Below the pieces are notes generated by a model, which was given only the letters and a program-made list of their open reading frames with translations, had not been told where the DNA came from and ran no database searches. Both the position numbers and the translations under genes were made by a program. This document shows positions 529 through 45,000 of a DNA stretch of 64,000 nucleotides, piece by piece. Each line of letters begins with the position of its first letter. Position 1 is the first letter of the stretch. The stretch is from Dictyostelium discoideum (taxonomy: Eukaryota): NCBI GenBank assembly GCA_000004695.1, contig CM000152.2:6144001-6208000 (forward strand). Reading direction: 5' to 3'.

Positions 529-640
529 ATGAATCAAATAAATTATTTGACATCCGAACGAAACTTTTTACCACCAACCGATCGTGATATATTAAACTTA
601 GGGAATAATAGTAGTAATAGTAATAATAATAGTAGTAGTA

Positions 641-703
<63 letters not shown>

Positions 704-981
704 GTAATAGTAATAGTAATAGTAATAATAATAATAATAATAATAGTAATAATAATAATAGTAGTAGCTCACCAGATCACATGTCGCTTCATTCAAATGG
801 TATGGATATACACCATAATCAACAGAACCATCATTATCAAAATATTCAACATCAACCACATCATTTCCAACAAAACTACGATGAAAGAAGAATAGATTAT
901 GGAAATAATAATAATAACAATAATACAAATTCAATGAATAATTCTAATAATAATTCTAATAATAATTCTAATAATAATTCA

Positions 982-1035
<54 letters not shown>

Positions 1036-2082
1036 TCAAATAATAATAATAATTCAAATAACAATAATTTTAATTATAATATTAAACAACAACCACAACA
1101 AACATTACAAAATCAAATTGTAAATATGAACGGTAATATTATTACATCGAATGGAAACCATCATTATCCAACGCCCCATATGCTTTATGCTAGAATGGCG
1201 GAAATAGTGGAGGAACCTTTATATGTAAATGCAAAACAATATAATAGAATTTTAAAAAGACGTGCAGCTCGTGCAAAATTAGAATCTGAAAATAAGTTAC
1301 CAAAAACTAGAAAAGCATATCAACATGAAAGTAGACATCAACATGCAATTAGAAGACAAAGAGGTTGTGGTGGTAGATTCTTAACAAAAGCTGATCAAGC
1401 AAAATTAGATGCTCAAAATGCTGCTAATGCCGCTGCTGCTGCTGCCAATCCAAATGCTAGCTCCACATCTACAACCACTTCAAATATTACCAACAACAAT
1501 AATAATAATAATAACAACAACAACACAAATAATAATAATAATAATAATAACACAAATGTAAATGGTAGTGGTGGTAGTGGTGGTAGTAATAAAATCGCTT
1601 CTTCTGATGATGATATTGAAAATGATGTTGAAAATGATAGTGATAGTGCCAATATTAAAAATAATTCAAATAGTCCAAATCAATCTTCCTCCTCTCCTCC
1701 TCCTTCAAAATCTAAAGTTGTTAAAAAATCAAATACTATAAATAAAAGAAATAATAATATTAATAATAATAATAATAATAATAACAACAATAATAATGAG
1801 AAAACGCAACCAATATCTTCTTCATCTTCTTCTTCTTCACCTTTACTAAATAATGGTCATATACAGGCTCAACAAAATCAATCACCATCCTCTTCACCAT
1901 CTCAAAATCTTCCTCCATTAAATTTTAGTAATAACATTAATAACAATATCAATAATAATGGCAATCCGACAAATTTTAATAATAACAATCCAAATAATAA
2001 TCCAAATAATAATAATAATAATAATCCAAATAATAATAGTTTCCTTCCGCCACTTTCAAATTTTTCAAATAATAGATCCTAG
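529..2082 (+). CDS. nfyA: CCAAT-binding factor NF-YA/HAP2 subunit (CBFB_NFYA domain). Single 517-aa ORF with very long poly-Asn/Ser tracts.
   Basis: The translation contains the diagnostic NF-YA core '[21 protein letters not shown]...[25 protein letters not shown]', which has the subunit-interaction and DNA-binding halves in canonical spacing. The flanks are (AAT)n-encoded poly-N. Confidence 0.85.
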
Positions 2083-3704: not shown

Positions 3705-6679
3705 TTATTTTTTAGATTTTCTAAATGTTCTATACACAAAGATTTTGAAACGAAGGGATTTGGACAAGGCAATTTTTAAAATAATAATTGCAGAAATAAA
3801 AAATACAACAGAACCAACGATAATACCAGCTAATTGACCTTTAGTTAAAGATGATTCGGATGATGAGCAAATTGAATTTGGAGAATTAGAATTTACAGCT
3901 TGGTTATCTAATAAAAGTGAAAAATCAGGATCTATAGTTACAGAGGTTTCATATTGACCAACCACAATACCAATATACGATTGCACATTATTTTCATTTG
4001 ATATTGAATTTAATTTTGAATCTAATAATTCATTTGTGATTGTTACTATTTTCCCATCAACAATACCACGTTTTAAAAATCTACCATAAATACTATTACT
4101 TGAAACTTGAAGTTTAATATAATTTGAATTATCTAATGTTGTATCACCAAATTCTTTACCTGAACAAATATCATTTTCATTTGATTGAATTTGAGCTTCA
4201 ATTATAACTTGTAAATTATTTAATTTATTTGAGAATTTATATGATGATAATTCTACTGTATATTTAATTGTTGATGGATTCATTATTAATTCTTGATTTG
4301 CAAATGTAATATTACTTTTTTTTTCAAACCATTCTAATGTTACATTAATTGTTGTTGTTATGTTATTATTAATAATTGTTGATTGATAATTTAATATTGT
4401 TGATGAAATACTATTATAATACCATTTATCAATATAATGAATTTTAACTTGTTCACCATTGATTGAATTTACTTCTCTAATTGCTATAATTGATATATTA
4501 CTTTTAACTTGATAATTATTATTAACATTACTAGAATTATTATTGCTATTATCAATAACTGTAGTCAGTTTATCTTCTTTGGTTTTGGTTGTGGTATAAT
4601 TATAACTTTTGAGCTACAATCTAAACCAACATAAGGAGAATAACAAATACCACCTACATTTTCTTTACAATAACCTTGTTCCGAACTACTACATACTGGA
4701 TTACCTAAACAAATTTGAGGTTTATTAGTTGGTGTTGGTGTTGATGGGGTTGGAGTTGGAGTTGGAGTTGGGGTTGGGGTTGAAAATTGAAAATTATAAA
4801 TGGTTGGAGTAATTGTAAAATTATTAGAACTTTCAAGTTTAATTGTGTTATAAACTTCAATATTATTTTTAATAATAATTTCATTAGTATTGGTAACCCA
4901 AATTGAACAATATCATAAACAATTTCAAAAGCACCTTCTATAATTGACCCTGATATTAATTTATCAGAATAATATTGATTAAATCTTTGATCATCATTTG
5001 TTGGTATTTGAATAAATCATACCATATTTATCAAACTTGAAATCTAAGAAAAAACTTAAATTCTGTTAGAAAGATAACTTTAGAATCTATTATTTGTGGA
5101 ATTGATAATTCAATATTTGAATTTAATGCTGTGACAGATATATCTAAACCAACAGAACCTTCTGTTTTACATATATAACTATAATTTTTTTGAAGTTAAA
5201 CCAGATACTGGTACTGATATTCCTAATACATAATTTGGGTTACTACCTCTTAGAAATCCATATGGGAATGATTTAAACTATATTTCTGATTTCCATTATA
5301 GAATTGATTATATTCATGATTATATGGTGCTACTCCTACAGTATCCTCTATACTAAACATATTCATTATATCAATTTCAATTGGAACATTATAAAAACTT
5401 GAACTTGGAATTGGTGATCCTCCAATCACTATACAAATATAACTATTAATTTAAATGATTCATTTTATGTAATACATATATATATATATTAATAATACAT
5501 ACATTTTAAATTTGTTTTAAAATCAAAACTTTCAAATGTTGAATCTTCTTTTCTTCTTAAGAGTGTATCATTTCTTTTTTCAGAATTAGGTTGGACAAAA
5601 CAAATATAAGTCATTTTACCTAAATTACCATAAATCGGTTTTGAAATAGAGTAATAATAAATTCCTTGATTTAAAATTACTACTGGGTATACAACTCTTT
5701 GTAATAATGAACTTGATTGGAATGTTATAATAGTTCCTAAAAATTCGCCCTCAACTGAAGCACTTCCCAATGGATTTTGTTTTAAATTTAAAATTTCATG
5801 TGAATTTGTATTTCTACCAATATATTCCAAATATAAATATAAGCAAACAAAAAAATAAATAATAAATATGTAAATATAAATTCTTTTTTTTTTATTATTA
5901 TTATTTATTGTAATTTTATAAAATACTTACTTGTTGTATTGTATGGTACTAAAATTGTTAAATTTTTATTATTTGAAAAATTTAATTCTGTTTCCCAAAT
6001 TGAAAAGTTTGATGTTTTCAAAATATAATACTTTTCTGTATACTTTATACGAAACATACTTTGACCAAGTGATGTTATTTTAAATAAAGTAGAATCATAG
6101 AATTCACTGATACTAATAGAATCAGGAAAATCTTCTAATTTAAAGATTGATGAAAATTTTAATATTGAACTCCATGTCACATCTTGAATAATGATATATG
6201 AATTTACTTGAAAACCTATACAACAATTAATAAATAAAAAAATGAAAAATGTTACAAAAAATGAAAAGTGTTACAAAAAATAAAAAATGAATAATAAATA
6301 GTAAAAATAATAATTTAATTGATATTTAATATTTACCTTTACATTTAAAATCAATTGTTAAATTATCTTTTAATATATCATTATTTACAGAAAAGTTTAT
6401 TTGATTAGTCCCAACATAAACGTAACTTGTACAAGTAAATAAAGTTGCAGTATTATTTTGACTGGAAATAGAACAACCAATTCCAGAATTCAAATTATTA
6501 ATTGGTTCCGTTGAATTTGTAGCAAGAACAATAAAAACTGTATAGCAAATATTAGTTTTTGTTGTATAGAATTTATGGGTTTCACTTAAATCAAAAAGGG
6601 TGAACTCTTTTCCATTTACAAAAATAATTAAAAAAATTATTACAAAAAAAAAAATAGAAAATATTTTATTTTTAATCAT
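3705..6679 (-). pseudogene. Heavily decayed paralogue of the 5-exon IPT/EGF-like membrane-glycoprotein family. A signal-peptide exon (6326..6679) and the C-terminal EGF/TM part (3705..4283) are recognisable. The middle is riddled with deletions and stops.
   Basis: 3705..4283 translates almost identically to the C-terminus of the 841-aa ORF at 16620..19145 (…ICSGKEFGDTTLDNSNYIKLQVSSNSIYGRFLKRGIVDG…TM…KSKK). 4283..5450 aligns to copy 1 but has no ORF of 60 aa or longer and is about 1.4 kb shorter. 6326..6679 encodes a signal peptide plus a Cys-containing N-terminal segment similar to exon 1 of the other copies. Confidence 0.6.
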
Positions 6680-7207
6680 TTTTATTTTTACTAAAAAATA
6701 AAAATAAAAAAAAAAAAAAATAAAGTTATAATTAATATATTATTAATATTTTTTTTTTTAATCCTTTTTTTAAATAAAAAAAAAAAAAAAAAAAAAAAAT
6801 TATTTTTAACAGATATTTGTTCTTTGAAAATGAGAGGGTTAGCACAAAAAAAAAAAAAATATCTTAAAAAATCGTAAAAAAGTTTTTTATTTTTTTAATA
6901 TTATTGTTATTTAAAATATCAAAACATAAATAAATTGGCCTTTTAAAAAAAATAATGACAATGAAGAGTTTAAACTGATTCTCTCATTTATCTTTTTTTT
7001 TTTTTTTATATTTTTATTCTAGCCTTCAAAAAATCTTCAAAAGCCAATCATTTGAACCTAAATCAAAAAAGGTGGACTCTATTAAATTTACAAAAAATAA
7101 TTAAAAAACCTATTGCAAAAAAAAAAGATAATTTTTTAAATTTGATCTTACTTATAATAAAATATAAATAATAATAATAATAGTTGTTTTTTTATTTTTT
7201 ATTTTTT

Positions 7208-8251
7208 TTAATAACAAATAATAATAAAAAATATAAAAACAGTAATAATTTTAACAATTTGACCTTTGAATAAAAATGATAATGAAGAAGAAGAAGAAGA
7301 AGAAGAAGAAGTTGATGATTCACTATTTATTTCAGATAATGGTGAGCAAATTGAATTTTTTGAATTGGAATTTGCTGCTTTCTCTAATGAAAGTGAAAAA
7401 TCAGCATTGAAAATTAGACTTGATTGATAAAAAGGAACCGAAATACCAATATATGATTCCACATTATTTGCTTTGGAATTAAAATCAGTAGGATATAAAC
7501 TATTTACTATTGTTGGATAGTTTTCACCATCAGCCAAACAATTTATTGGGAATCTACCTAAAAGAGTATTGTTTGAAACTTGAAGTCTAACATATCTAGA
7601 ATCATCTGGTTCTATTGTATAACCAAATTCTTTACTTGAGCAAATAGGATTATTGGTTTCATTTAATTGGACTTGAACTTTAAATATAATTTGTAAAACA
7701 TTTAAATGGCCTCCAAAAGCAAATGGAGAGAGATTAACTGAATATTTTATTTTTGAAAATTCTTGATCTTCAATTAATTCTTGTATTACATTAACTGTTG
7801 TTGTTACACCACCTTTTTCAATTGTTGTTTGATAATTTAAAATTTTATATATTGAACTACCTGATATTCTCTGAATATTAAGATTATAACTAGTCACTGT
7901 TTCACCATAAACATCAAGTTCTCTGATTTCAGTTAATAAAATAACATATGGCGTTGTTGTTGGTGTTGGTGTTGTTGTTGGTGTTGGTGTTGGTGTTGGT
8001 GTTGGTGTTGGTGTTGGTGTTGGTGTTGGTATAATTATAACTATTGAAGTACAATCAATGCCTGTATAAGGTGTATAACAAATACAACCAATATTTTCTT
8101 TACAATAACCTTGTTCTGGTCCACCACATATTGGATTACCTCGACAATTTTGAAGTGAATTGGTTGGAGTTGTTGTTGGTGTTGGTCCTTGACCTCTAAT
8201 TAAAATAAAACAAAAGAAAAAAATAAAAAGGGTGGATAATCTGTAAAACAT
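7208..8251 (-). CDS. Compact single-exon secreted/type I membrane protein of about 348 aa. Order: signal peptide, Thr/Pro linker, one EGF-like Cys module, (PT)n linker, a roughly 200-aa juxtamembrane domain, TM helix, very short tail. It corresponds to the stand-alone C-terminal module of the large family.
   Basis: The likely start is the internal Met 'MFYRLSTLFIFFFCFILIRG', since the upstream part of the listed ORF is poly-K/F junk. It contains 'CRGNPICGGPEQGYCKENIGCICYTPYTGIDCTS', (PT)n, then 'EIRELD...VTSY...', and ends in a hydrophobic helix. This is homologous to 8994..10040 and to the C-terminal 330 aa of 16620..19145. Confidence 0.6.
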   Translation of the reverse strand: MFYRLSTLFIFFFCFILIRGQGPTPTTTPTNSLQNCRGNPICGGPEQGYCKENIGCICYTPYTGIDCTSIVIIIPTPTPTPTPTPTPTPTPTTTPTPTTTPYVILLTEIRELDVYGETVTSYNLNIQRISGSSIYKILNYQTTIEKGGVTTTVNVIQELIEDQEFSKIKYSVNLSPFAFGGHLNVLQIIFKVQVQLNETNNPICSSKEFGYTIEPDDSRYVRLQVSNNTLLGRFPINCLADGENYPTIVNSLYPTDFNSKANNVESYIGISVPFYQSSLIFNADFSLSLEKAANSNSKNSICSPLSEINSESSTSSSSSSSSSLSFLFKGQIVKIITVFIFFIIICY

Positions 8252-8557
8252 TTTTTTTTTTTTAACATAAAAAATAAAAATAAAAAAAAAAAAAAATTGA
8301 AAAACAAAAGTATTGAATAAAAAAAAGAAGTTTTCTTTTTGTTTTTTTTTTTGAATTTTTTTTTTTAGAATTTGCATTTTTTTCTAAGGGGAGCTTCATA
8401 GAAAATAAAAAATTAAAAGTAAAAAAAAAAAGAGGCGACAACCCACCAGCACTGCATAAAATTACTTTTCTCCACTTAAATGCTGAAATTATTACACCAA
8501 ACACCTTAATTTTTTCACAAAGAAGATATTTTAGAATTTGAAAGAATATTTAGATAT

Positions 8558-8607
<50 letters not shown>

Positions 8608-8993
8608 AAGGTGTAAATAATGGTAGTTAATTAAATTAATTTTTTTTATTTTATATTTTTTTCATTTAATTATACACTTATATTTTTTTTTTTCAGTTTT
8701 AAAAATTTTTAGTTCTAATTATTTGAATCTTTTAATCCAAAAAATAAAAGAAGTCTTGTTATTTTTTAAAAAAAAAAAAAAAAAAAAATCCCAATCAACT
8801 GCACTTAAATCAAATAATGGTTAATTCTATACCATTTACAAAAACAATTAAAAAACTTATTTCAAAAAAAAAAAAGATAATATTTTAAATTAATAATTAC
8901 TAATAATAAAATTAAAAATAAAAATAAAAATAATAATAGTTTTTTTTTTATTTTTTTTTATTTTTTTTTGCCTTTTTATTTAATTGTTCACAA

Positions 8994-10040
8994 TTAACAA
9001 ATAATTATTAAAAATATAAAAACAGTAATAATTTTAACAAATTGACCTTTGAATAAAAATGATGATAATGAAGAAGAAGAAGAAGAAGAAGTTAATGACG
9101 ATTCACTATTTTCAGATAATGATGAGGATGGAGATGAACTAGATTGTGATTCTTCAGATGGTGAGCAAACTGAATTTGGTGAATTAGAATTTGCTGCTTT
9201 CCCTAGTGAAAATGAAAAATCAGAATCAAAAATTATCCATGATTGATAATTAGGAATTGAAATACCAATATGTGATTCCACATTATTGGCTTTGGATTTC
9301 AAATCGCCAGAATCTAAACTAATTGATGATGTTGATATGATTTTAGCATCAGCGAAACAACTATTTGGGAATCTACTTAAAAGAGTACTATTTGCAACTT
9401 GAAGTCTAACATAGCTAGAATCATCTGGTTGTGTTGTAAAAGCATATTCTTTACTCGAGCAAATAGTCGTATTACTAGTTTCATTTAATTGAACTTGTAC
9501 TTTAAATATAATTTGTAAAACATTTAAAGCACTTTGAAAAGCATATTGTGAGAGATTAACTGAATATTTTATTTTTGTTAATTCTTGATCTTCAAGTAAT
9601 TCTTTTGTTACATTAACTCTTGTTGTTACACCACCTTGTAGAATTGTTGTTTGATAATATGATATATTGTTTAAATTTCCTATTATTCCCCAATTAGTAA
9701 GAATATGACTAGTCACTGTTTTACCATCAAAATCAAGTTCTCTGATTTCAGTTATTAAAATAACATATTCACTATTACTATCATCATCGATTTCAGTGTT
9801 TGGTGCCTCTTGTGATGATATTGGTGTTGGTATAATTATAACTTTTGAAGTACAATCTAAACCTACATAAGGTGAATAACAAACACAACTATTTTCGAAA
9901 CAATAACCTTGTTCTGGTCCACCACATATTGGATTACCTTGACAATTTTGAAGTGAATCAGTTGGCGTTGTTGTTGGTGTTGCTTTAATTAAAACAAAAT
10001 AAAAGAAAAAAATAAAAAGGAAGGATAATCTGGAAACCAT
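8994..10040 (-). CDS. Second compact EGF-like/TM family member (348 aa, single exon). Order: signal peptide, 'CQGNPICGGPEQGYCFENSCVCYSPYVGLDCTS', acidic insert, juxtamembrane domain, TM.
   Basis: Full ORF with an N-terminal signal peptide (MVSRLSFLFIFFFYFVLIKA), a C-terminal hydrophobic anchor, and block-wise identity to 7208..8251 (…QTTI..GGVTT.VNV..EL.EDQE..KIKYSVNLS..AF…). Confidence 0.65.
   Translation of the reverse strand: MVSRLSFLFIFFFYFVLIKATPTTTPTDSLQNCQGNPICGGPEQGYCFENSCVCYSPYVGLDCTSKVIIIPTPISSQEAPNTEIDDDSNSEYVILITEIRELDFDGKTVTSHILTNWGIIGNLNNISYYQTTILQGGVTTRVNVTKELLEDQELTKIKYSVNLSQYAFQSALNVLQIIFKVQVQLNETSNTTICSSKEYAFTTQPDDSSYVRLQVANSTLLSRFPNSCFADAKIISTSSISLDSGDLKSKANNVESHIGISIPNYQSWIIFDSDFSFSLGKAANSNSPNSVCSPSEESQSSSSPSSSLSENSESSLTSSSSSSSLSSFLFKGQFVKIITVFIFLIIIC
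9049..9246 (+). other. Antisense low-complexity ORF (poly-Glu/Asp), not a gene.
   Basis: It lies wholly inside the Ser-rich region of the minus-strand CDS 8994..10040, and its composition is the complement of (TCT/TCA)n. Confidence 0.7.
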
Positions 10041-11211
10041 TTTCTTTTTTTTTTTTCTCTAAAAAACATAAAAAAAAAAAAAAATAGAAATTGTATAAAA
10101 AAAAAAGTTAAAAAAACAACATTGAAGATAAAAAAAAAAAATTACGAGTTTCCTTTTTGTTGATTTTTTTTTTTTTTTTTTTTCTTTTTTCTTTTTTACA
10201 GAAATTGCTTTTTTTTAAAAAAAGGATTTTTACTGAGATATTTTTTTTTTTTTTATCTTCATCAATGCTGGTTTTTAAAAAAAAAAAAAAATAAAAAAAA
10301 AAAATAAAAAAAAAAAAAAAAAAATTAAAAATCAATTAATAGAAATTTTAAATTTCATTAAAAAAAAACTTTTCAAATTTCAATTGATTTTTGATAATAT
10401 CCCCCTCCCAATCAAAGTTTAATTCAACTGTTGAAAAAAAAAAAAAACCCAGATTTTTTATTTTATGAGAATAAATATCTATAGGAGAAGCAACTAACAA
10501 TTTCATTTATTAAAATCAATAAAAAAAATAAAATATACAAAAACTAAAATTTATTTATTTATTCTCTTCATTATTTATTTATTTATTTTTTTTTTTTTTT
10601 ATTCAGAATTCTTTCTTGGTTCTTTTTTTCTTTAATCAACGAGGCTTGTTTGATTGTTTGAAGGTTTTATAAACAAAAATTCTTAGACCAATAGATTTTG
10701 TGAATAATTTTTCCAACAACTATAACCATAGTTATATTATTTTAATTTTATTCTAATTAATTATTATTTTCTTTTTAATTAAATTATTTTTAAATTTATA
10801 TTATTATTTTATATGGTGATTTTGTGTGTGTGACATTTTTAATATCTGGTATCTAATATCTATTGTGAAAACCTTGTGAAATTAAAATTAAAATATTTTT
10901 TTTTTTTTTTTTTTTTTAATTACAACGGGAGAAAACCCCTTTAAACAAAACAATAAAACAAATTATTATTATTTTCTGAATTATGTGTGTTATAATAAAA
11001 TGTTGAAACAAAACTATATTCTAAATTATTATTATTTATTTTTGAATTGTTATTATTTAGTTGTGTTTAGTGAGTTTATTATATAAAATGAAACAATTTA
11101 TTAAAATAAATTAAGTTAGTAATAATTAATATTGAATTATTAATTCAATATTAATAGTTATTTTTAAATGTTCTGTTTAGAGCATTTCATGAAATTAAAT
11201 AAATGTTAGTA

Positions 11212-11891
11212 TTAACAAGATATTTTTGAGATCTTGTTACAATCCCAAATTGCAAAGCTGAAAACTGAGTTTAAAATACTATCTTGATTAAATAGATTAT
11301 AAAAATCACTATCTTGAAATGTTTTTGGATCGATTAATGTAAAACCAATTGGTAAATTCAGGTATTTATCTATATTATTAAAATTAAAATATATTATATT
11401 ATCAACTATTAGATCTGTAATATCTACATCATTAAACATAAAAGAAATATCTTTTTAATCTTTTAAATTATCAACACCTATAGATTATTTAATTTTTTTT
11501 AATTATTTAATTAGTTGGTAAATTATATTAAAATTTTCAATTTTTTTGATTTAACTTACTTTTTAATTGTATTGATGATAAAATTACTTGAATATTATGT
11601 GAATAAATGGAGCCTTCTCGATTTGGACTATAAAGTGAAAATGCATCTAAATGATTAAAAAAACCATCTGGTTATTTGTTGAACCATATTTAACGGCATC
11701 GTATAATATTTCAAAAACACCATTTTTAATATTACCAGGAACCAATGACTCTACATGAAATTCCAAAACATTATTATCAATAATTTATACCATATGTATC
11801 TAATATTATAAATCTAATAAAATAATAGAAATTACTTAAATATATGGTTTCATATGATTTTAAGATTGGTATAGTAGCGTCATTGACTATA
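11212..11891 (-). pseudogene. Fragment of a family member (start of exon 5 'MFNDVDITDLIVDNIIYFNFNNID...', intron 4 and the 3' part of exon 4), interrupted at 11891 by a TIR element. A 60-bp tail of the same exon resumes at 14087..14150.
   Basis: The 75-aa ORF 11212..11439 is about 75% identical to the start of 16620..19145. 11440..11885 aligns to the copy 1 intron 4/exon 4 sequence (19184..19620) with indels. Homology stops abruptly at the element boundary and at about 11235. Confidence 0.55.
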
Positions 11892-12397
11892 TGTCCCATG
11901 CCAAAATTACCATATTAATTTCAGCAGCCATATTAATTTTGGCATGGGACTTAGGTCTGCCAAAATTACCTTATTAATTTCAGCAGCCATATTAATTTCA
12001 GCATGTACATAGCTGCCAAAATTAATATGGTAATTTTGGCATAGAAAAAAAAAAAGTCAAAGTCATTTAATTAATAATCATCTCAAATATAAACAAAATT
12101 TTAGTACTAAAATTAATATTATTATTATTTTTATTTTAATAATTATAATAATAAAAAAAAAAAAAAAAAATTTTCATATTATTTTATTTATATCTTTTAT
12201 TTATTTTTATCTTTTTATTTTTATTATTAATTTTATAATTTATTTTCATTTCTTTTTTTTTTAGTTGAAAAAAATTTTTTTATTATTCATTTATTTCTAA
12301 GGCTAACAAAAAAAAAAAATTAAAAATAAAAAAAAAAAATAAAATAAAAAAAAAAAAAAAAAAATTAAAATAATTTTTTTTTTTTAATTTTTTTTTT

Positions 12398-13064
12398 TTA
12401 ATTATCTACTCTTCTACTTACTCTTTTGTTACTAACAGATGAAGTTTCGTTTGAAAATCTTTTGGTGAAAAAATCAGCATCAGATTGTAATTGATTAGCT
12501 CTTTTTTTACCCGTTTTGTTTTTGTTTGATTGAGTTGTGATTCCACCATTATTGGAAGTTGTTGCAGCTTCATGTGTTGATCTAACTTCGGTGGTAGAGT
12601 GCTCGATTGCTTTTCCAACTAGGTCATCTGTTGATTTTCTTTTGGTTATTTCGATATCCCTTTGCAATTTATTTTTACTTGAGAGTTTGGTGGCCTCTAT
12701 TCTAGAAGTAGGCTCAGTATTGTAATAAGCCTTTATAATAGCAGAATGACTATCTGCTTTATAATGATTACTGATGTGCTGTTGACACTGGTTTTGATTA
12801 ATCATATGAGAGACACCATCTTCATCTTTGTTAAGCCTAACCTTCTCTATAATCTTCACTAAGTCTTTTGGGTACCAATTTTTTCTTTTTATCTTTATCA
12901 ATATAAAACACTTCTTTAATAGTTGCCGTACCATATTCTACATTCTCAACAACATACTGTTTATCCAAAATGTTTTTCCAATAGCTTGTATTTTGTCCAC
13001 TCAATTTGGTATTATGAAATTTATAATCTATTTTAAATTTTACATCTTCGTCATATTTTTCCAA
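12398..13064 (-). CDS. ORF(s) carried inside the TIR element. A 75-aa ORF (12837..13064) and a 178-aa ORF (12398..12934) overlap in different frames and are probably one frameshifted or spliced gene. The product is basic and Ser/Thr/Lys-rich, with no recognisable DDE or other transposase motif.
   Basis: Two adjacent minus-strand ORFs with non-repetitive composition (MEKYDEDVKFKIDYKFHNTKL...; ...NWYPKDLVKIIEKVRLNKDEDGVSHMINQNQ...) lie between the inverted repeats. No match to any transposase family I can recognise by eye. Confidence 0.3.
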
Positions 13065-13354
13065 GAGTTTTTTTAATTTATTTTTATTATTTTTTCAATT
13101 TCTGTTGCAGAAAGTTGATTATTTAATTTATTGTCTTTACTGAAGACCATTTTTTGGAACGAAAACTTTAAAAAAATAAAAAAATAAAAAAAAAAATACT
13201 TTTTTTTTTTAATTTTTTTTTTTATATTTTTTTTTTTATATTTTTTTTTTTTAAATTTTTTTTTTTAATTTTTTTTTTTTATTTTATTTTTTTAAAGTTT
13301 CGAACAATTATATATAAAAAAAAAGTAAAAGATATCCCTTCGGTTAATTAAATA

Positions 13355-13362
13355 ATAGTAAT

Positions 13363-13406
<44 letters not shown>

Positions 13407-13408
13407 TA

Positions 13409-13500
<92 letters not shown>
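13355..13500. repeat. (AAT)n microsatellite of about 145 bp inside the TIR element.
   Basis: Direct reading: aataataataat… with one interruption. Confidence 0.9.
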
Positions 13501-13505
<5 letters not shown>

Positions 13506-14371
13506 CTTAAATATACAAAAAAAAAATAAAAAAATAAAAAAATAAAAAAAATAAAAAAAAAAAAATAGAATGAAATGAAATAAAATAAAATAAAAAAAAG
13601 AAATACAGAATTTCTTTAAAGAAACTTATTTCGAAATTGTTTAAACAATCATACAGTTTAAAATTAAATAAATTGTTTTAAACCACCACTTTTTTTGAAC
13701 ACATGAAAATAAATAAGAAATAAAAATAAAAAGATAAAAAAAGATTTTTTTTTTTTTTTTTATTTTATAATTATTCTTGTCGTCAGTATTGTTACTATAA
13801 TTAATCCCATGAGTTTTTTTTTATTATTATTTTTAATTCTTTTATATTTGAGATGATTATTATTAATTAAATGACTTTGAGTTTTTTTTTTTATTTTTCT
13901 ATGCCCAAAATTACCATATTAATTTCAGCAGCCATATTAATTTCAGCCTAAAATAGTTGGTCTGTGCATGCCAAAATTAATATGGCTGCTGAAATTAATA
14001 TGGTAATTCTAGCAGACATAAGTCCCATGCCAAAATTACCATATTAATTTCAGCAGCCATATTAATTTTGGCATGGGACAACTATACTCGAAGGTGTCAC
14101 TTGTGACTTTAGATAGAAACATTTGAAAATATAGTAAAAATGGATAAAAAAAAAAGAAAATAAAATAATTAAAAAAAAACCAAATAATAAAAAGTTTCAT
14201 TCAATATATATATATTTTTTTAGTATTTATTTTATTTTAATAAAATATGTTAAAAATTATAATGTTTCAATTTTTAATATATTTATTATTTTTTTTTTAT
14301 TATTTTTTATTTTATTTTTTAATATATTTTGTTGTAGGGAATTTTTTTTGATATTTCGCTTTCTAAACGGC

Positions 14372-14424
14372 AGTGAATTTTTACACTAAAATACACTATT
14401 TATACATAGTGTAAAAATTCACTA
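14372..14424. repeat. Perfect 16-bp inverted repeat (AGTGAATTTTTACACT / AGTGTAAAAATTCACT) around a 21-bp loop. It is an isolated hairpin in AT-rich intergenic DNA.
   Basis: Direct reading of 14372..14387 and 14409..14424. Confidence 0.8.
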
Positions 14425-14733
14425 AAAATTTTTTTTTTTTTTTATAAATTAAAAACAATTTATTTAATCAAAATAATAAAAAAACTAATTTTGAACAATT
14501 ATTTGTTGTTTAAGAATTAAATAACAATTTAAATTGTTAGATTTGAGCCAATTTTTTTTATTTTTTTTATTTTTTTATTTTTTTTTTAATAATTTATAAA
14601 ATGGCATTGCAAACTTTTATTAAAATTTAATTGTGAGAAATTTTACTATTGTAATTTCACGGGAAAAAAAAACCTAGTAAAATGTTAAAATATAATTAAT
14701 TAAATTAAATTTTAATAAAAGTTTGTAATGCTA

Positions 14734-14925
14734 AATTTGAGAGTCATCTTACTCTCAAATTATTTAAATAATTTAATTTGAGAGTCATCTTACTCTCAAA
14801 TTATTTAAATAAATTTTTTATTTTTTTATTTTTTTTTTAATAATTTTTAAATAAATTGTTATTTAATTTTTATTAATTTATTTAAATAATTTGAGAGTCA
14901 TCTTACTCTCAAATTATTTAAAATA
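14734..14925. repeat. Three copies (two tandem, one 75 bp further on) of a 38-bp unit 'AATTTGAGAGTCATCTTACTCTCAAATTATTTAAATAA'. Each unit contains its own 9-bp inverted repeat (TTTGAGAGT/ACTCTCAAA). The last copy abuts the truncation point of a gene copy.
   Basis: Units are at 14734..14772, 14775..14813 and 14888..14925. The 3' half of the unit (ctcAAATTATTTAAAatacatac) resembles the end of intron 3 in intact copy 1 (ctctAATTATTTAAAatacatac at 20056..20078). Confidence 0.65.
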
Positions 14926-15686
14926 CATACTTGTATAGTTTATAAAAATTGGAATACCTTGATAAGTTGTATCATTTATTTGTTCATAAAGAGAATAATT
15001 TTGTAAACCAGCGTTTAAAACCGAAAGGTAACTAATGTATGTCATATTACCCTATTGATCAAGATATAGGACTTGGTAAAGTTGAAATTATTTGGTCACT
15101 TAAAAAAATCAATGGATTAATTGGTCTTTGTAATGATGATATTGATTTAAGTTTTATAACACTTCCCAAAAATAAATTAGTTTCGCAATGGCCATCATTT
15201 GGGAATTGGATTAATTCTACAATTTCTCCATTCTTATTACTATTTTTATATTATTTTAAATTAATACAAACTATATTAATAAAATGAATTTTTTAAAAAA
15301 AAAAATAAAAAAAAGCTTTTTTTTTTCTGGAATTGTTTAAAAAATCAATTTTATAAAAAATTATAAAAGTAATAAAATCTTATTTGTTATATTATATGGT
15401 ACTGAAATATTGACCAGAATTATTAAAAGATATTTCCCAATTAGAGTTTGATAATCTTGGAATATAAAAATTTTCATAATATCGAATTCTATAATAATTT
15501 TTACCAAGTGATACTAAATCAAATGAATAATAACTATCAATAGTATTAATTCTAGTTGAATCTAAAAAACCATTTAGTTTAACAATTGATGAAAATTTAT
15601 TAACTATACTCCATGTTACTTGTATTATTTCAATATTAAAATAGTAATAATAATAATGGTAATAAACAATTGTATTAGTTGTTTTG

Positions 15687-15729
<43 letters not shown>

Positions 15730-16092
15730 AAGAGATTTATAATTACTTTTACATTCATAATTAAATAAAAATGAACCTTTTGAATATCATTGTTTACAAA
15801 AAAGGTTGTTGAATAGTTTGAAAAATTAAGAACATAAAAAAGTTGATGAAGTTATATTTACTTCTATAAAAAAACAAGACATATTGTCACCATCTAATGT
15901 TTGTATAGAATCTGTAGTTTCATTTATTTTTTGAACTAAAAATAAAAGATTGTATGCCGGACAATATGCATTTGGTGTTAATTCTGGATAAAATATATTT
16001 ATTCTATCTAAATAAGTTATTGAATAATTTAGTCCTTTTATTAATAAAATAAATGATTATATTAAAAGGTTGATAATTCCAAGTTTAACCAT
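14922..16092 (-). pseudogene. Truncated 5' half (exons 1-3) of a family member. It begins with ATG (MVKLGIINLLI) but has an in-frame TAA in the signal peptide. Its 3' end is replaced by the palindromic tandem repeats.
   Basis: 14922..15290, 15380..15640 and 15740..16092 align to copy 1 exons 3, 2 and 1 (20079..20414, 20493..20768, 20895..21274) with introns in the same places. 'ATGGTTAAACTTGGAATTATCAACCTTTTAATATAA' contains a stop. No exon 4/5 homology lies downstream. Confidence 0.55.
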
Positions 16093-16372
16093 TTTAAAAG
16101 TAGAATTGTTTAATGTTTTTTTTGTTTTAAATTCGACCCGAGAGGAATTTTAAAATTTGTGAAAAAAATTTTTGGGGAAAAAAAAAAAAAAAATTTAATC
16201 GTAAATCCAAATGCTCAAATTTTTAAATTCCATCAAGCCAAACTTCGAACAAAAAAAAAATAGGATTTTTTTTTCTAAAAATAAAGATATTTTTTGGGCG
16301 TGAAATAGATAATTAAGTCTAATAGTCATTTTTTTTTTTTATTAATAATAAAAATTTTTTAATTGAATTTTT

Positions 16373-16419
<47 letters not shown>

Positions 16420-16619
16420 AGGAATATTCAATAAAACAATCAATTTAAAGAATAAAAAAAAAAAAATAAAAAAAAAAAAAAACAAAAAAAAGAGAATAAT
16501 TTTTGTCTGTTTGTAAAGGATTTATTTATTTATTTATTTTTTATCAATAAAATAAATAAAAAAAAAAAAAAAGAATAATTTTTGGTTTGCAAAGGATTTA
16601 TTCGTTTTTTTCTTTTTTA

Positions 16620-19183
16620 TCAATAAGTCTTCTTTGATTTTTTGAAGATTTTATAAATAATGATTCTAATATGAATTGATTTTGAGAAGAGAATTATTCC
16701 AACAATTATAACTAAAACTATGAAAAATACAATAGAACCAACAATAATACCAGCTAGTTGACTTTTGGTTAAAGATGATCCGGATGATGAGCAAATTGAA
16801 TTTGGGGAATTAGAATTTACAGCTTGATTATCTAATAAAAGTGAAAAATCAGGATCTATAATTACAGAGGTTTCATATTGACCAACCACAATACCAATAT
16901 ATGATTGTACATTATTTTCATTTGATATTGAATTTAATTTTGAATCTAATAATTCATTTGCGATTGTTACTGTTTCACCATCAACAATACCACGTTTTAA
17001 GAATCTACCATAAATACTATTACTTGAAACTTGAAGTTTAATATAATTTGAATTATCTAATGTTGTATCACCAAATTCTTTACCTGAACAAATATCTTTT
17101 TCATTTGATTGAATTTGAGCTTCAATTATAACTTGTAAATTATTTAATTTATTTGAGAATTTATATGATGATAATTCTACTGTATATTTAATTGTTGATG
17201 GATTCATTATTAATTCTTGATTTGCAAATGTAATATTACTTTTTTTTTCAAACCATTCTAATGTTACATTAATTGTTGTTGTTATGTTATTATTTATAAT
17301 TGTTGATTGATAATTTGATATTGTTGATGAAATACTATTATAATACCATTTATCAATATAATGAATTTTAACTTGTTCACCATTGATTGAGTTAACTTCT
17401 CTAATTGCTATAATTGATATGTTACTTGTAACTTGGTAATTATTATTAACATTACTAGAATTATTATTTTTATTATCAATAATTGTAGTTGGTTTATCTT
17501 CATTTGGTTTTGGTTGTGGTATAATTATAACTTTAGAGCTACAATCTAAGCCAACATAAGGAGAAAAACAAATACAACCAACATTTTCTTTACAATAACC
17601 TTTTTCTGAACCGCCACATACTGGATTACCTAAACAAATTTGAGGTTTATTAGTTGGTGTTGGTGTTGGAGAAATGGTACTTGTTGGTGTTGGAGTTGGT
17701 GCTGAATAATTGAAATAATAAACTTTTGGGAAAATAGTAAAAGTGTTTGATAGAATAGTTGGTTGCTGAATATTGGTTAAATGTACATTGATTGAATCGT
17801 TTGTTGGTTTAATATTTTTAATTAAAATTACAGAATCACTCGGTACTGTCATTGCTGAAGAATAAGATTCACCATTACTTGATAATATCACAACTTTATT
17901 GGTTGATTTAAAACCTCTACCATATAACCAAAGATCACCACCATCATTATCTATAGCAGATGAGTCAGTAATGATTGGTTGAGTTACTGAAAACTCTTTT
18001 GTTTCTACAAACCAAGTAAAACCTGAATCTTTTAAATCACTTGCGCTATAACCTCTATATGATCCACCTCTATTAATAAATCCATAAACTGAAATTAAAA
18101 ATCCATATGGATGTGAAAATCCAATTGGTACTTCCATTGTGCATGTGTATTCAATATCTGTTCTATTCTTTGTAACAATGGTTGAAATACATTCATGAAT
18201 TCTTGAATTCATATCTGTTATATATACTATTGGATATTGATCATCTTTTAAACCGTCTAAATCCTGTGCATCAAAATCAAATACTATTAATCTATCTAAT
18301 GACCCAACATCAATAGATGATCTTGATACCCAAAATCTTTTTAACTCTGGTAGTGGTGAATCAATTTGATTACACATATTTAATGTTGAAACTTGTAATA
18401 TTGACATATCATTAAGATAATTAATAAATGGATTCGCACTTGAGTCAAGGCTAATTTGCCCATCCAATTCAATATTTGTAAGACGTTTATAATATTTATT
18501 TACATTACCAAATGTATCAATGAAAACTGCATAATAAATTTCATAATTTTGAGGTACACAATCATTTAAAATATATGGTATACTTATTATATAATTTCCT
18601 TTCCATTTATCACCACTACCAACTACCATATCACTTAATTCCAATGTATAATTATATAATGAACTATCAATCGAACCTCTAATAGTAACATATCCATCTT
18701 TGAAACCATTAATTTCATCTTCAATTGTAAATAACCATCCTAATGTTGTGTCTGGATATTTAACTATACTTGTAACTATTGGACCATAACTATCGAATTT
18801 TGTATTATCAATTCTTAATTGGTATTCATCAGATAATTGAGTATTAAGTATATAATTCTCTTTATTAAATATTAACATCCAATCTAAAACACCTGGTGAT
18901 GTATTTGCTGGTATTTTAAATTTAATATAAAATCTTGAATTTATTTCATCCCAAATTGCAAAACTGTAAACTGAGTTTAAAATACTAACTTGATTATATT
19001 CATTAATAAAATCACTATCTTGTAGTGTTCTTGGGTCAGTTAATGTAAAACCAATTGGTAAATTCTTATAATTATCTATATTATTAAAACTAAAATATAT
19101 TATATTATCAACTATTTGATCTGTAATATCAACATCATTAAACATAAAAGAAATATCTTTTATATCTTTTAAATGGTCAACAC
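16620..19183 (-). CDS. Exon 5 (about 855 aa) of family copy 1, a large type I membrane glycoprotein. It has a roughly 550-aa ectodomain including an IPT/TIG-like segment ('PIITDSSAIDNDGGDLWLYGRGFKSTNKVVILS'), (TP)n linkers, the EGF-like module 'CLGNPVCGGSEKGYCKENVGCICFSPYVGLDCSS', a juxtamembrane domain, a TM helix and a basic tail 'KIFKKSKKTY'.
   Basis: An 841-aa ORF is preceded in frame by a CTATAG acceptor at about 19184. Domain calls come from cysteine spacing and hydropathy read from the translation. Paralogues elsewhere in the window conserve the same blocks. Confidence 0.7.
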
Positions 19184-19265
19184 CTATAGATTATTTAATT
19201 TTTTTTAATTATTTAATTAGTTGGTAAATTATATTAAAATTTTCAATTTTTTCAATTTAACTTAC

Positions 19266-20833
19266 TTTTTAATTGTATTGAAGGGAAAATTACTTGAATA
19301 GTATGTGATAAAATGGAGTAGTCTCGATTTGGACTATAAACTGAAGATGAGTCTAAGTGATTATAAAAACTTATTGAATTTTTTGTTGAACCATATTTAA
19401 CGGCATCGTATAATATTTCAAAAACACCATTTTTAATATCACCAGAAATCAATGAGTCTACATGAAATTCCAAAACATTATTATCAATAATAGTTTGAAA
19501 ATAATTTAAACCATATGTATCTGATATCATAAATCTAATTAAATAATTAAAATTATTTAAATATATGGTTTCATATGATTTTAAGATTGGTTTAGTTGTG
19601 TCATTGACAAAACTTGAAGGTGTCACTCGCAACTCTGGGCCATTTCCAGAAAGAAAGGTCATATGCAAGTAAAAATAATTTTTATTTGAAAAACCACGAG
19701 TTGGTAAAGACATTTTTATTTTGTAGTTTAAATTGTTTCCACTTGAAAATCCAAATGGAAATACTTGATATTTATTATCACCAAATATACCATCCCCATA
19801 GGAATACTTTAAGTATTGAGAATCATACTTGAATCCAATGTCACTATAAGACAATTCAAATGAATATAATGACATTGAACTAGTACTATTATCAACAGTT
19901 GTATTTATTATTGAAGATATTAAACCTTGATCAATTTGGCCTTTTCCAAAAAATTAAAAAAATTAAAAAAACAAGAAAATAAAAAAAAACATGAATTAGA
20001 ATTGTGTTTTAATTTTAATTAATAATAACAATAATAAAAATAATAATAATTTGCACTCTAATTATTTAAAATACATACTTGTATAGTTTATAAAAATTGG
20101 AATACCTTGATAAGCTGTGTTATTTATTTGTTCATAAAGAGAATAATTTTGTAAACCATCGTTTACAACCGAAAGGTAACTAATGTATGTCATATTACCT
20201 ATTGATCCAGAAATAGGTCTTGGTAAAGTTGAATACACCGAGTTAATTAAAACCAATGGATTAATTGGTCTTTGTAATGATGATACTGAATTAAATTTTA
20301 TAACACTTCCAAACAATAACATAATTTCACAATTGCGGCCATTTGGAAATTGGATTAATTCTACAATTTCTTCATTCTTATTACTATTTTTATATTCTTT
20401 TAAATTAATACAAACTATATTAATAAAATGAATTTTTAAAAAAAAAAAAAAAAAAAAATTAATTTTAAAAAATAATAATAATAAAATCTTACTTGTTATA
20501 TTATATGGTACTGAAATTGTTATTATTGTACCAGAATTACTAAAAGATATTTCCCAATTAGAGTTTGATAATCTTGGAATATAAAATTTTTCATAATATC
20601 GAATTCTATAATAATTTTTACCAAGTGATGTTAAATCAAATGAATAATAACTATCAATAGTAGTAATTATAGTTGAATCTAATAAACCATTTAGTTTAAC
20701 AATTGATGAAAATTTATTAACTATACTCCATGTTACTTCTTGTATTATTTCAATATTAATTTCATATCCTTATTATATTAATATTAAAATAGTAATAGTA
20801 ATAATAATAAATTGTATTAGTTATATATTTTGG

Positions 20834-20893
<60 letters not shown>

Positions 20894-21274
20894 CAGATTT
20901 GAGATTTATAATTCCTTTTACATTCATAATAAAATAAAAGGGAACTTTTTGAAATATCATTGTTAACATTAAAGGTTGTTGAATATTTGAAAAAATTAAG
21001 AGTTGCATATTCTGAGCAAAAAAAAGTTGATGAAGTTATATTCCTTCTATAAATAAACAAAACTGATTGTCACTACCTAATGTTTGTATAGAATCTGCAG
21101 TTTCATTTATTTTTGAACAAAGAATAAACGTTGGTATGAAGAACAATATGGATGTAATGTTTGTTCTGGATAGAATATATATATTTTATCTAGATAAGTA
21201 ATTGAATAATCTTGTCCTTTTATTAATAAAATAAATGTTAATAAAAAAAGCCTGATTATTCCAAGTTTAGCCAT
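19266..21274 (-). CDS. Upstream exons 1-4 of the same gene. Exon 4 is 19266..19940, exon 3 is 20079..20414, exon 2 is 20493..20768 and exon 1 is about 20895..21274 with the signal peptide MAKLGIIRLFLL… Exons 2-4 are open and phase-consistent. Exon 1 shows 1-nt and 4-nt indels relative to the paralogues, which create stops.
   Basis: Donors are GTAAGT (19265), GTATGT (20078) and GTAAGA (20492). Acceptors are AG at 19941, 20415 and 20769. Exon lengths satisfy phase (675, 336, 276). Exon 1 reads '...SSYQRLFFVQK*' because of a 1-nt shorter poly-A run than copy 3. A second 1-nt loss and a +4 insertion follow. Confidence 0.45.
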
Positions 21275-24900: not shown

Positions 24901-25105
24901 ATATTACCAATTGATCCAGATATTGGTCTTGGTAAAGATGATATTAAGATGTTGTTATTTAAAACTAATGGATTAACTGGTCTTTGTAATGATGATGTTG
25001 ATTTAAATTTTATAACACTTCCAAAAATATTTAAAACTTTACAAGTTCCATCTTTTGGAAATTGAACTAATTCATTAATCTCTTCACTATTTTTAAATTC
25101 TATAG

Positions 25106-25169
<64 letters not shown>

Positions 25170-26765: not shown

Positions 26766-35193
<8,428 letters not shown>

Positions 35194-35494: not shown

Positions 35495-39574
<4,080 letters not shown>

Positions 39575-43047: not shown

Positions 43048-43114
43048 ATGGAAAATAAATTTTTATCTGGATCATCCGAATTATTTTCATCATTATATAA
43101 TAATACTAATACTA

Positions 43115-43165
<51 letters not shown>

Positions 43166-43434
43166 TTAACAATACTACTACTACTACCACTACTACCACC
43201 AGTAATAATAATTTAAAAAATAATTTTTCAAATAAAAATAATTTTTCATTTAATAATTCAAGCAATTCATTAAGTAGTAGTTTTGGGGTTCCATCTTCAC
43301 CCCCACCACAAAAATTAAATAATAGTGGATATAATTTTAATTCATCTTCATATTCATCATTGGTACCAAATATTAAAAAAAGATCAAATTCATTAGATGA
43401 TAATATGTCTGTTCCAACTTTACAAAATTTTACA

Positions 43435-43484
<50 letters not shown>

Positions 43485-43502
43485 TTCCAATAATAATAGT
43501 TC

Positions 43503-43536
<34 letters not shown>

Positions 43537-44860: not shown

Positions 44861-44934
<74 letters not shown>

Positions 44935-44956
44935 AATCATCATCATCAACAATTGC

Positions 44957-44989
<33 letters not shown>

Positions 44990-45000
44990 TGCACCATTAA
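43048..45000 (+). CDS. GATA-type zinc-finger transcription factor (650 aa, single exon) with poly-N/Q/T low-complexity regions.
   Basis: 'CTSCGTTSSPEWRKGPAGNQSLCNACGLYFAKLVRRE' is a canonical C-x2-C-x17-C-x2-C GATA finger with a basic tail. Confidence 0.8.

Follow-up and report, generated by a model that had tools for sequence, protein, structure and literature searches.

TRAIL-R3/DcR1 is a tail-less, glycosylphosphatidylinositol (GPI)-anchored paralogue of transmembrane receptors, and csA/gp80 and PsA are Dictyostelium GPI-anchored glycoproteins with Pro/Thr- or Ser-rich stalks, which are developmentally induced. The two small genes analysed here, referred to as mini-genes 1 and 2, were compared with these systems. 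They are located in a window of 64,000 bp, i.e. the whole stretch of DNA that was analysed, on chromosome 3 of Dictyostelium discoideum AX4 (contig CM000152.2, positions 6,144,001 to 6,208,000; GC content of about 20% throughout), where they sit in a gene cluster of the ComC-like family, so named after comC. Each mini-gene encodes a secretory-pathway protein with only the membrane-proximal module of the family, namely a six-Cys knot and a supersandwich domain, followed by a Ser-rich stalk and a tail-less hydrophobic end. As a whole, they are best explained, in our opinion with reasonable probability, as truncation-born, partly constrained and probably lipid-anchored ComC-family genes.

The closest described systems

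The members of the ComC-like family are dictyostelid proteins annotated as "EGF-like domain-containing" (EGF, epidermal growth factor), and are also found in Tieghemostelium, Polysphondylium, Cavenderia and Heterostelium. A profile search with the mini-gene products gave 483 family cluster representatives (382 at E ≤ 1e-10), most of them 1,330-1,430 aa long and matching at their C-terminus; the ten long members for which names were recorded are all "EGF-like domain-containing" or hypothetical proteins. These large proteins display an N-terminal ectodomain of about 1,000 aa (DUF7743, DUF7035, DUF7034 and DUF8390) and, near the C-terminus, a hydrophobic transmembrane (TM) segment of about 24 residues followed by a Lys/Arg-rich cytoplasmic tail of about 20-21 residues. 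To our knowledge, no ligand has been found for any ComC-like family member.

The mini-gene products share with this family a homologous knot and supersandwich domain (44-57% identity to the closest subfamily) and, apparently by inheritance, their signal peptide and the beginning of the TM helix. By contrast, they lack the N-terminal ectodomain, none of whose domains has a match in either product, as well as the Lys-rich tail, and their TM helix is short of its final third. For the same module, the ratio of non-synonymous to synonymous rates (dN/dS, or ω) is also 3-8 times higher in the mini-genes than in a full-length ComC-like copy. Concerning TRAIL-R3/DcR1, the logic would be the same, with a receptor ectodomain module placed on the surface without a signalling tail; the mini-gene products, however, also lack the ligand-distal 70% of the ectodomain, and in their case both the GPI anchor and any decoy effect are putative.

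As for csA/gp80 and PsA, a signal peptide, a folded ectodomain, a low-complexity stalk of the O-glycosylation type and a terminal hydrophobic signal are held in common with the mini-gene products, but the sequences are unrelated, and their developmental induction contrasts with mini-gene 2 (DDB_G0282701), the transcript of which falls on starvation. Finally, a likeness in fold, at an identity of at most 12%, exists with galactose-mutarotase-like supersandwich domains (the accessory domains of GH65, GH94, GH116 and GH38, the luminal domain of GLMP, 8r8q_B, and the P1 domain of YidC), although the mini-gene products have no catalytic partner domain and a shared fold is no proof of sugar binding.

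The family and its domains in Pfam are thus already known, as is DDB_G0282701 as a hypothetical protein. No description was found of its truncated, probably lipid-anchored nature, of its tandem and apparently unannotated paralogue, or of the evolutionary regime of the pair.

Structure of the two mini-genes

Six copies from four genomes make up the mini-gene set: genes 1 and 2 of AX4, genes 1 and 2 of L003, gene 2 of L001 and a single copy in L002. L001 is another D. discoideum strain, while L002 and L003 are two D. cf. discoideum genomes; from their organism labels, the three probably belong to the set of D. discoideum isolates and cryptic sister species that was sequenced recently (bioRxiv 10.1101/2025.08.01.668227). 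The parts of the two AX4 genes are the following (open reading frame, ORF).

7208..8251, minus strand: mini-gene 1, single exon, 347 aa plus stop (ORF and translation)
8186..8251, minus strand: gene 1, signal peptide MFYRLSTLFIFFFCFILIRGQG (translation, comparison with the large copies)
8051..8146, minus strand: gene 1, EGF-like six-Cys knot (DUF7949), C36..C67 (Pfam E 5.1e-14)
7949..8030, minus strand: gene 1, (PT)n linker, an (ACACCA)13.7 hexanucleotide microsatellite (Tandem Repeats Finder)
7343..7948, minus strand: gene 1, ComC-type supersandwich domain, residues 102-303 (identity to a ComC_SSD-bearing ORF)
7208..7342, minus strand: gene 1, poly-Ser stretch, spacer SFLFKGQ and hydrophobic tail IVKIITVFIFFIIICY to the stop (collinearity with the TM start)
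8994..10040, minus strand: mini-gene 2, DDB_G0282701, single exon, 348 aa plus stop (100% identity over 100% of the annotated protein)
9981..10040, minus strand: gene 2, signal peptide MVSRLSFLFIFFFYFVLIKA (translation, comparison with the large copies)
9852..9944, minus strand: gene 2, EGF-like six-Cys knot (DUF7949), C33..C63 (Pfam E 3.1e-15)
9162..9767, minus strand: gene 2, ComC-type supersandwich domain, residues 92-293
8994..9161, minus strand: gene 2, Ser-rich stretch, spacer and hydrophobic tail ...SFLFKGQFVKIITVFIFLIIIC to the stop

The original prediction, made from the sequence of the window, had described two single-exon genes of 348 aa, each with its own signal peptide, which would derive from the C-terminal module of the large receptors and reproduce its EGF-like knot, (PT)n linker, juxtamembrane domain and TM helix. 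The single exons and their coordinates were recovered here, with a length of 348 aa for the second product only. DDB_G0282701 is annotated as a hypothetical or "DUF7949 domain-containing" protein. Gene 1 has no AX4 entry in the protein collections searched, either by exact look-up or by homology, and is therefore apparently unannotated as a coding sequence (CDS) in AX4; a homology search with its core, freed of low-complexity sequence, returned the same four mini proteins and no others. The two products are 63% identical (E 4e-124), as tandem duplicates. A start at the in-frame ATG further upstream of gene 1, at 8377, would lengthen the product by 42 Lys/Phe-rich residues; in the orthologues, however, the start is at the ATG at 8251.

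Both products show the same order of parts: signal peptide, short Pro/Thr stretch, six-Cys knot, linker, domain of about 200 aa, Ser-rich stretch and terminal hydrophobic segment. The predicted signal peptide was found in both, as a hydrophobic N-terminus of the pattern M-x-x-R-L-S-x-LFIFFFCFILIRGQ behind an ATG in an A-rich context. By inspection, an Arg/Lys n-region, a 13-residue h-region LFIFFFCFILI and a c-region R-G-Q can be recognised in 6/6 copies, and the AlphaFold2 (AF2) model of gene 2 has a helix at residues 3-18, corresponding to the signal peptide. In this model, residues 31-60 reach block means of 89-95 for the predicted local distance difference test (pLDDT).

Concerning the knot, the DUF7949 matches of both products exceed the gathering score, and the six Cys are invariant in 60 family sequences. 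The canonical EGF profile, EGF_2, gives E-values of 0.22 for gene 1 and 0.62 for gene 2 (12.3 and 10.9 bits vs. a cut-off of 22.1); because these scores are below the cut-off while the CxC-x8-C spacing is that of EGF, the knot is called "EGF-like" only. The (PT)n linker that follows it, attributed by the original prediction to both genes, is restricted to AX4 gene 1, since gene 2 and all the orthologues have an unrelated acidic, Asn/Ser-rich linker instead.

The region running from the knot to the end of the domain is 44% identical (E 4e-57) to residues ~492-785 of an 841-aa ORF of the window (16620..19145), which carries DUF7035, DUF7034, DUF7949 and ComC_SSD, the latter (at 4e-11) in the stretch matched by the mini-genes. 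This match to the C-terminal ~300 aa of a large copy, together with the DUF7949 matches, bears out the proposed derivation from the C-terminal module. The Pfam profile ComC_SSD (PF22933) itself has no match at E ≤ 1 on either product, and the domain was assigned to the supersandwich type from the alignment to the ComC_SSD stretch, from the profile search and from the AF2 model, which is a supersandwich.

The C-terminus and its anchoring

The last residues of the mini-gene products, L-F-K-G-Q-I-V-K-I-I-T-V-F-I-F-F-I, align without gaps, over 17 codons, with L-T-K-S-Q-L-A-G-I-I-V-G-S-I-V-F-F of the large protein, and the motif K-G/S/A-Q-L/I-A-G-I-I is common among the family C-termini inspected. 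The hydrophobic segment is, however, collinear with the first two thirds of the family TM helix only: the products terminate 11-17 residues past their last charged residue, without a cytoplasmic tail, so that the full helix and basic tail typical of the family are absent. The TM helix of the original prediction is thereby not retained, and the segment reads better as a GPI signal.

A canonical GPI-attachment signal comprises small residues at the omega site, a spacer of 5-10 residues and a hydrophobic end without cytosolic residues. By a rule-based reading, this layout is found in the mini-gene products as the poly-Ser stretch, the spacer (L)SFLFKGQ and I/FVKIITVFIFFIIIC(Y) at the extreme C-terminus, and the last 15 residues have a mean Kyte-Doolittle hydropathy of 2.6-3.2. 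Since the poly-Ser, the 8-residue spacer and the terminal hydrophobic stretch match the canonical layout, the C-terminus is, to our mind somewhat more probably than anything else, a GPI-attachment signal, with the poly-Ser as candidate omega-site region. In this case, the mature protein would sit at the surface as a glycoprotein with a lipid anchor and with N- and O-linked glycans; it would display only the membrane-proximal module and could not signal via a tail.

Three points weigh against this assignment: the signal-peptide and GPI calls are rule-based readings of sequence, a Lys lies within the tail in 4/6 copies, and no proteomic or biochemical record of DDB_G0282701 was found in the papers searched. 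The genes and their origin could also be the same with a C-terminus of another kind, either a tail-less type I membrane helix or the end of a secreted or shed protein. In favour of such an end, the last 14 residues of gene 2 (334-347) are modelled by AF2 as a helix, the segment is homologous to a genuine TM helix, the uncharged terminal stretch reaches 16-17 residues in L001 and in gene 2 of L003, and GPI addition is deduced from the layout of the sequence alone. Yet in 4/6 copies the stretch behind the last Lys counts only 11-13 residues, a short length for spanning a bilayer, no positive stop-transfer flank is present, and the conserved poly-Ser, spacer and hydrophobic end fit the GPI signal. 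We therefore regard a membrane helix or a secreted product as unlikely, though deserving serious consideration.

Maintenance of the reading frames and selection

None of the six copies (341-348 aa) contains a stop codon, over a tree of about 1.8 substitutions per codon, and all their length differences are in frame; pseudogene lesions, whether stops, frameshifts or a lost start, were thus found in 0/6 copies. In neutral simulations, conducted with the HKY model on the same tree and at the local intergenic composition (85% A+T), each copy accumulated 8.5-12 stops, and 0/6 ORFs remained intact in each of 40 replicates. For a single lineage, the probability of observing no stop is about 0.001 at 10% divergence and about 0.1 at 3%, and therefore only a very recent loss of constraint could escape notice. 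Of all results of this analysis, the strongest one is that selection maintains the mini ORFs. The ORFs had been announced as intact and identical in length, and it is the intactness, in six copies and four genomes, that was confirmed.

Purifying selection had been proposed as well, a dN/dS near 1 being taken as its refutation, but the outcome of this comparison depends on the method. NG86 gives ω values of 0.9-1.25 for all pairs, while with GY94-F3x4 the pairwise values are 0.37-0.56 and the value for the tree of six sequences is 0.45, a nominal rejection of ω = 1 (twice the log-likelihood difference, 2ΔlnL, of 46). GY94-F3x4 is biased low here, because neutral simulations yield 0.58-0.66 and usually "reject" neutrality. 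In this 78%-AT genome, the two estimators err in opposite directions, with values around 1 for NG86 on the real data and around 0.6 for GY94-F3x4 on neutral data, and the dN/dS test therefore provides either answer, depending on the software. Following this neutral calibration, NG86 and the YN00/GY94-F3x4 of Biopython were dropped as primary evidence in favour of MG94-F3x4, for which neutral simulations show almost no bias (0.93 ± 0.13, with a minimum of 0.78 in 16 replicates). More generally, in sequences of 78-85% A+T, dN/dS claims for Dictyostelium genes need neutral calibration.

With MG94-F3x4, ω is 0.67 overall (2ΔlnL 12.1), 0.26 in the EGF knot (2ΔlnL 14.4), 0.83 in the signal peptide and about 0.5 in the tail and Ser-rich parts (not significant). 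Among the 239 gap-free codons of the knot and domain, the site model M1a is preferred to M0 with a 2ΔlnL of 56.8, 47% of the codons being at ω = 0.09 and 53% at 1, vs. a 2ΔlnL of at most 1.7 in five neutral simulations; this site-class test rejects a uniform neutrality of the mini-genes. Across site models, the constrained class holds 40-47% of the codons at ω = 0.06-0.09. Selection thus acts to preserve the frame and the EGF knot; about 40-47% of the EGF and supersandwich codons are constrained, the remainder evolving near the neutral rate. The proposed purifying selection therefore holds for the maintenance of the ORFs, but is weak at the amino-acid level. Between the mini-genes and the large module, ω is 0.42-0.46 at 1.1-1.4 substitutions per codon, a value of little information because two different regimes are averaged in it.

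The fast evolution of the mini-genes could be adaptive, the products being surface recognition molecules under diversifying selection, involved in contacts with prey or pathogens or in kin or mating recognition. Several results go in this direction: M2a is preferred to M1a (2ΔlnL 16.3, with about 3% of the codons at ω ~7), the internal branches that follow the duplication have an ω of 1.63 (2ΔlnL 4.4), copy number and location are polymorphic between close relatives, gene 2 is strongly regulated by bacteria and the fold is carbohydrate-binding-like. The M2a result is nevertheless a hint only, because it comes from six sequences, is uncalibrated on simulations and may be inflated by the visible mosaicism of, or gene conversion between, paralogues, at which the mixed motifs of L002 and of gene 1 of L003 hint. 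Moreover, more than half of the sites fit ω = 1 and are equally explained by relaxed constraint, and the "sexual reproduction" Gene Ontology (GO) term of gene 2 (see below) is ancestor-inferred only. Adaptive evolution is a doubtful explanation of the fast evolution.

Conversely, the mini-genes might be non-functional relics of segmental duplication, with frames surviving by chance and transcription as noise. Their setting, with five damaged family copies and a transposon remnant, would fit this reading, and they diverge 2-3 times faster than the neighbouring full-length ORF: orthologous mini-genes are 86-92% identical in nucleotides, vs. 95% for the pair formed by the ORF of large copy B and its L003 orthologue, the ω of which is 0.20 overall and 0.10 in the supersandwich domain. 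Further observations weigh against constraint on the mini-genes. The ω of the supersandwich domain (0.82) is not significantly below 1, nor is that of the AX4 gene 1 terminal branch (0.95) distinguishable from 1. Gene 1 of AX4 also has 19 private changes at sites that are invariant in the other five copies, including the loss of a family-conserved Trp, and only three N-glycosylation sequons vs. 6-8 in the other copies; it has no counterpart at the L001 locus and apparently no annotation in AX4. From its branch ω, the lost Trp, the fewer sequons and the absence from L001, AX4 gene 1 may have undergone a recent relaxation of constraint and may be sliding towards loss.

For the mini-genes as a whole, however, relics are disfavoured and appear very unlikely, as 6/6 copies are intact in four genomes, with in-frame length differences, vs. 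0/6 in the 40 neutral replicates, the EGF knot is at 0.26, 40-47% of the sites have an ω below 0.1 and gene 2 mRNA is regulated with very high significance. The stand-alone copy of L002 has the lowest ω of the six terminal branches (0.35; 2ΔlnL 5.7).

Independence as genes and distribution in related genomes

Each mini-gene begins with an ATG and a conserved signal peptide, preceded by an A-run that is conserved in the copies, and the DNA upstream, i.e. the 742 bp between the two genes and 1.2 kb in front of gene 2, is homopolymer-rich and non-coding. An upstream exon joining them to a larger gene, given by the original prediction as a possible refutation, was thus not found in these 0.7-1.2 kb. 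In L003, both mini-genes are present with the order and spacing of AX4. In L001, only the gene 2 orthologue was found, gene 1 being absent from the 21-kb locus. In L002, a single mini-gene (10001..11047) is flanked by the gene of an unrelated multi-pass membrane protein on one side and by a histone deacetylase gene on the other, and no other family homology was found in the 21 kb, i.e. within 10 kb on either side. This isolated copy therefore excludes a terminal exon in the L002 species and indicates that the unit moves and survives alone. Copy number thus varies: one D. discoideum strain lacks gene 1 at its syntenic locus, and a sister species has a single copy, at another place.

That the mini-genes are the last exon(s) of larger genes, spliced to an upstream part or fused to the downstream large gene, is close to refuted. 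An automatic L003 model (11764..18100) does combine the gene 1 orthologue and the large gene downstream of it in a 1,718-aa product, but this is probably a prediction artefact: the orthologue (from 11764) has an in-frame stop of its own where the other copies have theirs, and the sequence beyond it is A/T-rich and non-coding. The family fragment lying 1.2 kb from the gene 2 ATG (fragment E, 11242..11896) is no upstream exon either, being disabled by stops, truncated and derived from a non-adjacent part of the family (residues ~425-618). Both ORFs are therefore real genes of the D. discoideum clade that can be transcribed independently.

Expression

DDB_G0282701 is measurable in axenic DH1 cells, with an average expression (AveExpr) of 3.2 log2 counts per million (CPM), and its change in cells exposed to Klebsiella pneumoniae is one of the most significant, with a log fold change (logFC) of -2.05 vs. 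the control, i.e. an about 4-fold fall, and an adjusted P of 9.6e-18 (Lamrabet et al. 2020, PMC7078664, Table S1, sheet KpGe_vs_control). Rosengarten et al. 2015 (PMC4403905, Additional file 7) also list it three times as "suspension_DOWN", one of these entries belonging, by tab position, to the Hr03_rapid column. Being expressed in axenic cells and falling with both starvation and bacteria, gene 2 is therefore a vegetative-phase transcript. The expression data called for by the original prediction thus exist for gene 2; that none of them is specific to gene 1 weighs against extending the conclusion to both genes.

DDB_G0282699, the next lower identifier, which would correspond to either gene 1 or large copy A, is expressed (AveExpr 4.6) and occurs in a suspension_UP list. 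Identifiers increase along the window coordinates, as deduced from DDB_G0282703 at 12398..12934 and DDB_G0282721 at 57456..58916. A full-text literature search for DDB_G0282701 gave no paper, and the supplements of PMC6650454 contain no occurrence of it. In enrichment lists, DDB_G0282701 appears under GO:0019953 "sexual reproduction" together with other EGF-like family genes (PMC7078664). This lead was not used, since the annotation set is reported to be ancestor-inferred (IBA) only (PMC12750705), which leaves the term without gene-specific weight.

Duplication and origin

The following features relate to the duplication.

8791..10183, minus strand: tandem duplication unit with gene 2 (CDS flanked by about 140 bp on its 5' side and about 200 bp on its 3' side)
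7044..8366, minus strand: tandem duplication unit with gene 1
8802..8977, minus strand: relic 3' of gene 2, similar to the part of large copy A that holds its promoter and the beginning of its signal peptide (76% identity over 188 bp to 6583..6769)

The two units, of about 1.35 kb, are 76.6% identical over 1,434 bp, and the duplication is older than the split between AX4 and L003, because L003 has both copies in the same order. A second relic, at 7044..7150 after gene 1, shows the same likeness to copy A, whose real start is at 6679 ("..FLIIFVNGKEF.."). From the relics behind both mini-genes, it follows that the ancestral duplication unit extended into the next gene.

Regarding the origin of the mini-genes themselves, their signal peptide MVSKLSTLFIFFFCFILIRGQE-PTP resembles that of the closest large subfamily, MAKLGIIRLFLLTFILLIKGQD-YSI, and the alignment of the first 69 nt of the mini-genes with the DNA of this subfamily has a z of 4-5 against shuffles; past the signal peptide, homology to the large proteins resumes at the PT stretch that precedes the knot. 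The signal-peptide homology covers about 22 low-complexity codons, which weighs against the history suggested by it. Birth by in-frame internal deletion and TM truncation would be the simplest history: a full-length ComC-like gene of about 1,400 aa would have lost in frame about 1,000 aa, from the region of signal-peptide cleavage (..LIKGQ|D) to the PT run, and a stop codon would have shortened the TM helix, removing the basic cytoplasmic tail.

Similar short forms, which the original prediction suggested looking for beside other family clusters, were not found: none of the other proteins among the 150 best-matching family representatives has the mini layout. The four remaining entries in the size range of 349-430 aa were rejected as equivalents, as all lack a signal peptide and the two whose C-terminus is complete still have both TM helix and tail; they have the appearance of fragments or incomplete gene models. 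The mini-genes were found in the discoideum clade only, and the form therefore appears young and lineage-specific, bearing in mind that annotation can miss such genes, as with AX4 gene 1.

The surrounding family cluster

The large copies were mapped by tblastn with a full-length family member of 1,399 aa (P0007). Five were found in the window, all on the minus strand and all damaged (5/5), which agrees with the decay of the neighbouring full-length copies reported by the original prediction. They are listed below with the transposon remnant and the genes that border the cluster.

3720..6679, minus strand: large copy A, downstream neighbour of gene 1; residues ~313-1021 missing in comparison with the family and the L003 orthologue
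16620..21274, minus strand: large copy B; 841-aa C-terminal ORF intact, frameshifts after codons ~55 and ~80, N-terminal third fragmented
21973..25908, minus strand: large copy C; start codon lost, two internal deletions, frameshifts
14932..16092, minus strand: large copy D, N-terminal fragment (residues 1-316); stop inside the signal peptide
11242..11896, minus strand: fragment E, residues ~425-618; in-frame stops, truncated at 11242 near the transposon ORF (tblastn)
12398..12934, minus strand: DDB_G0282703, transposon remnant (multi-copy 178-aa ORF)
529..2082: gene for an NF-YA-like CCAAT-binding factor
28168..34485: gene for Mediator subunit 13 (Med13)

The region deleted from copy A corresponds to positions 15343-16967 of L003, which have no counterpart in the window. 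In L001, the copy A orthologue (1,458 aa) is apparently intact, and between it and the gene 2 orthologue lie about 5 kb (11250..16800) without a counterpart in the window, with several small called genes. Within D. discoideum, the cluster is thus polymorphic in both presence/absence and integrity. The C-terminal ORF of copy B (16620..19145) was compared with L003 2015..4597, and has the low ω of 0.20 and the 95% nucleotide identity given above despite the frameshifted N-terminal third of the AX4 copy; either the AX4 lesions are recent, or this ORF is used alone from the internal ATG at 19145.

Several AX4 loci carry near-identical copies of DDB_G0282703, which groups with an integrase-domain protein of 769 aa; it is a transposon remnant within the family cluster, beside the break that truncates fragment E at 11242. 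The family cluster is bordered by the NF-YA homologue and by Med13. Other genes beside it encode a PHD-finger protein (35495..39400), a GATA factor (43048..45000) and a RhoGEF-PX protein (52526..54952); the flanking genes are ordinary regulators, for which no link to the cluster was seen.

Proposed role and implications

During vegetative growth, the product could act at the surface as a tail-less, signalling-dead partner or competitor for the ligand of the family's carbohydrate-binding-like supersandwich module, a ligand which, given the fold, may be a glycan. This role is the weakest step of the proposed mechanism. The decoy or co-receptor idea of the original prediction is compatible with the data as a hypothesis. 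A wider possibility, in which the deletion and the TM stop would have created a new lipid-anchored class, under diversifying selection and variable in copy number, that takes part in cell-cell or cell-prey recognition, e.g. as a polymorphic modulator of ComC-family adhesion, communication or mating, seems to us quite unlikely.

If the proposed history is true, the locus would offer a clean and datable case of gene birth by truncation within a fast-turnover cluster of surface receptors, in which a single premature stop switches a transmembrane anchor to a probable lipid anchor. An apparently unannotated paralogue is flagged at the same time in the AX4 reference. For the ComC-like family, the mini-genes would provide a small, tractable handle on its uncharacterised membrane-proximal EGF and supersandwich module.

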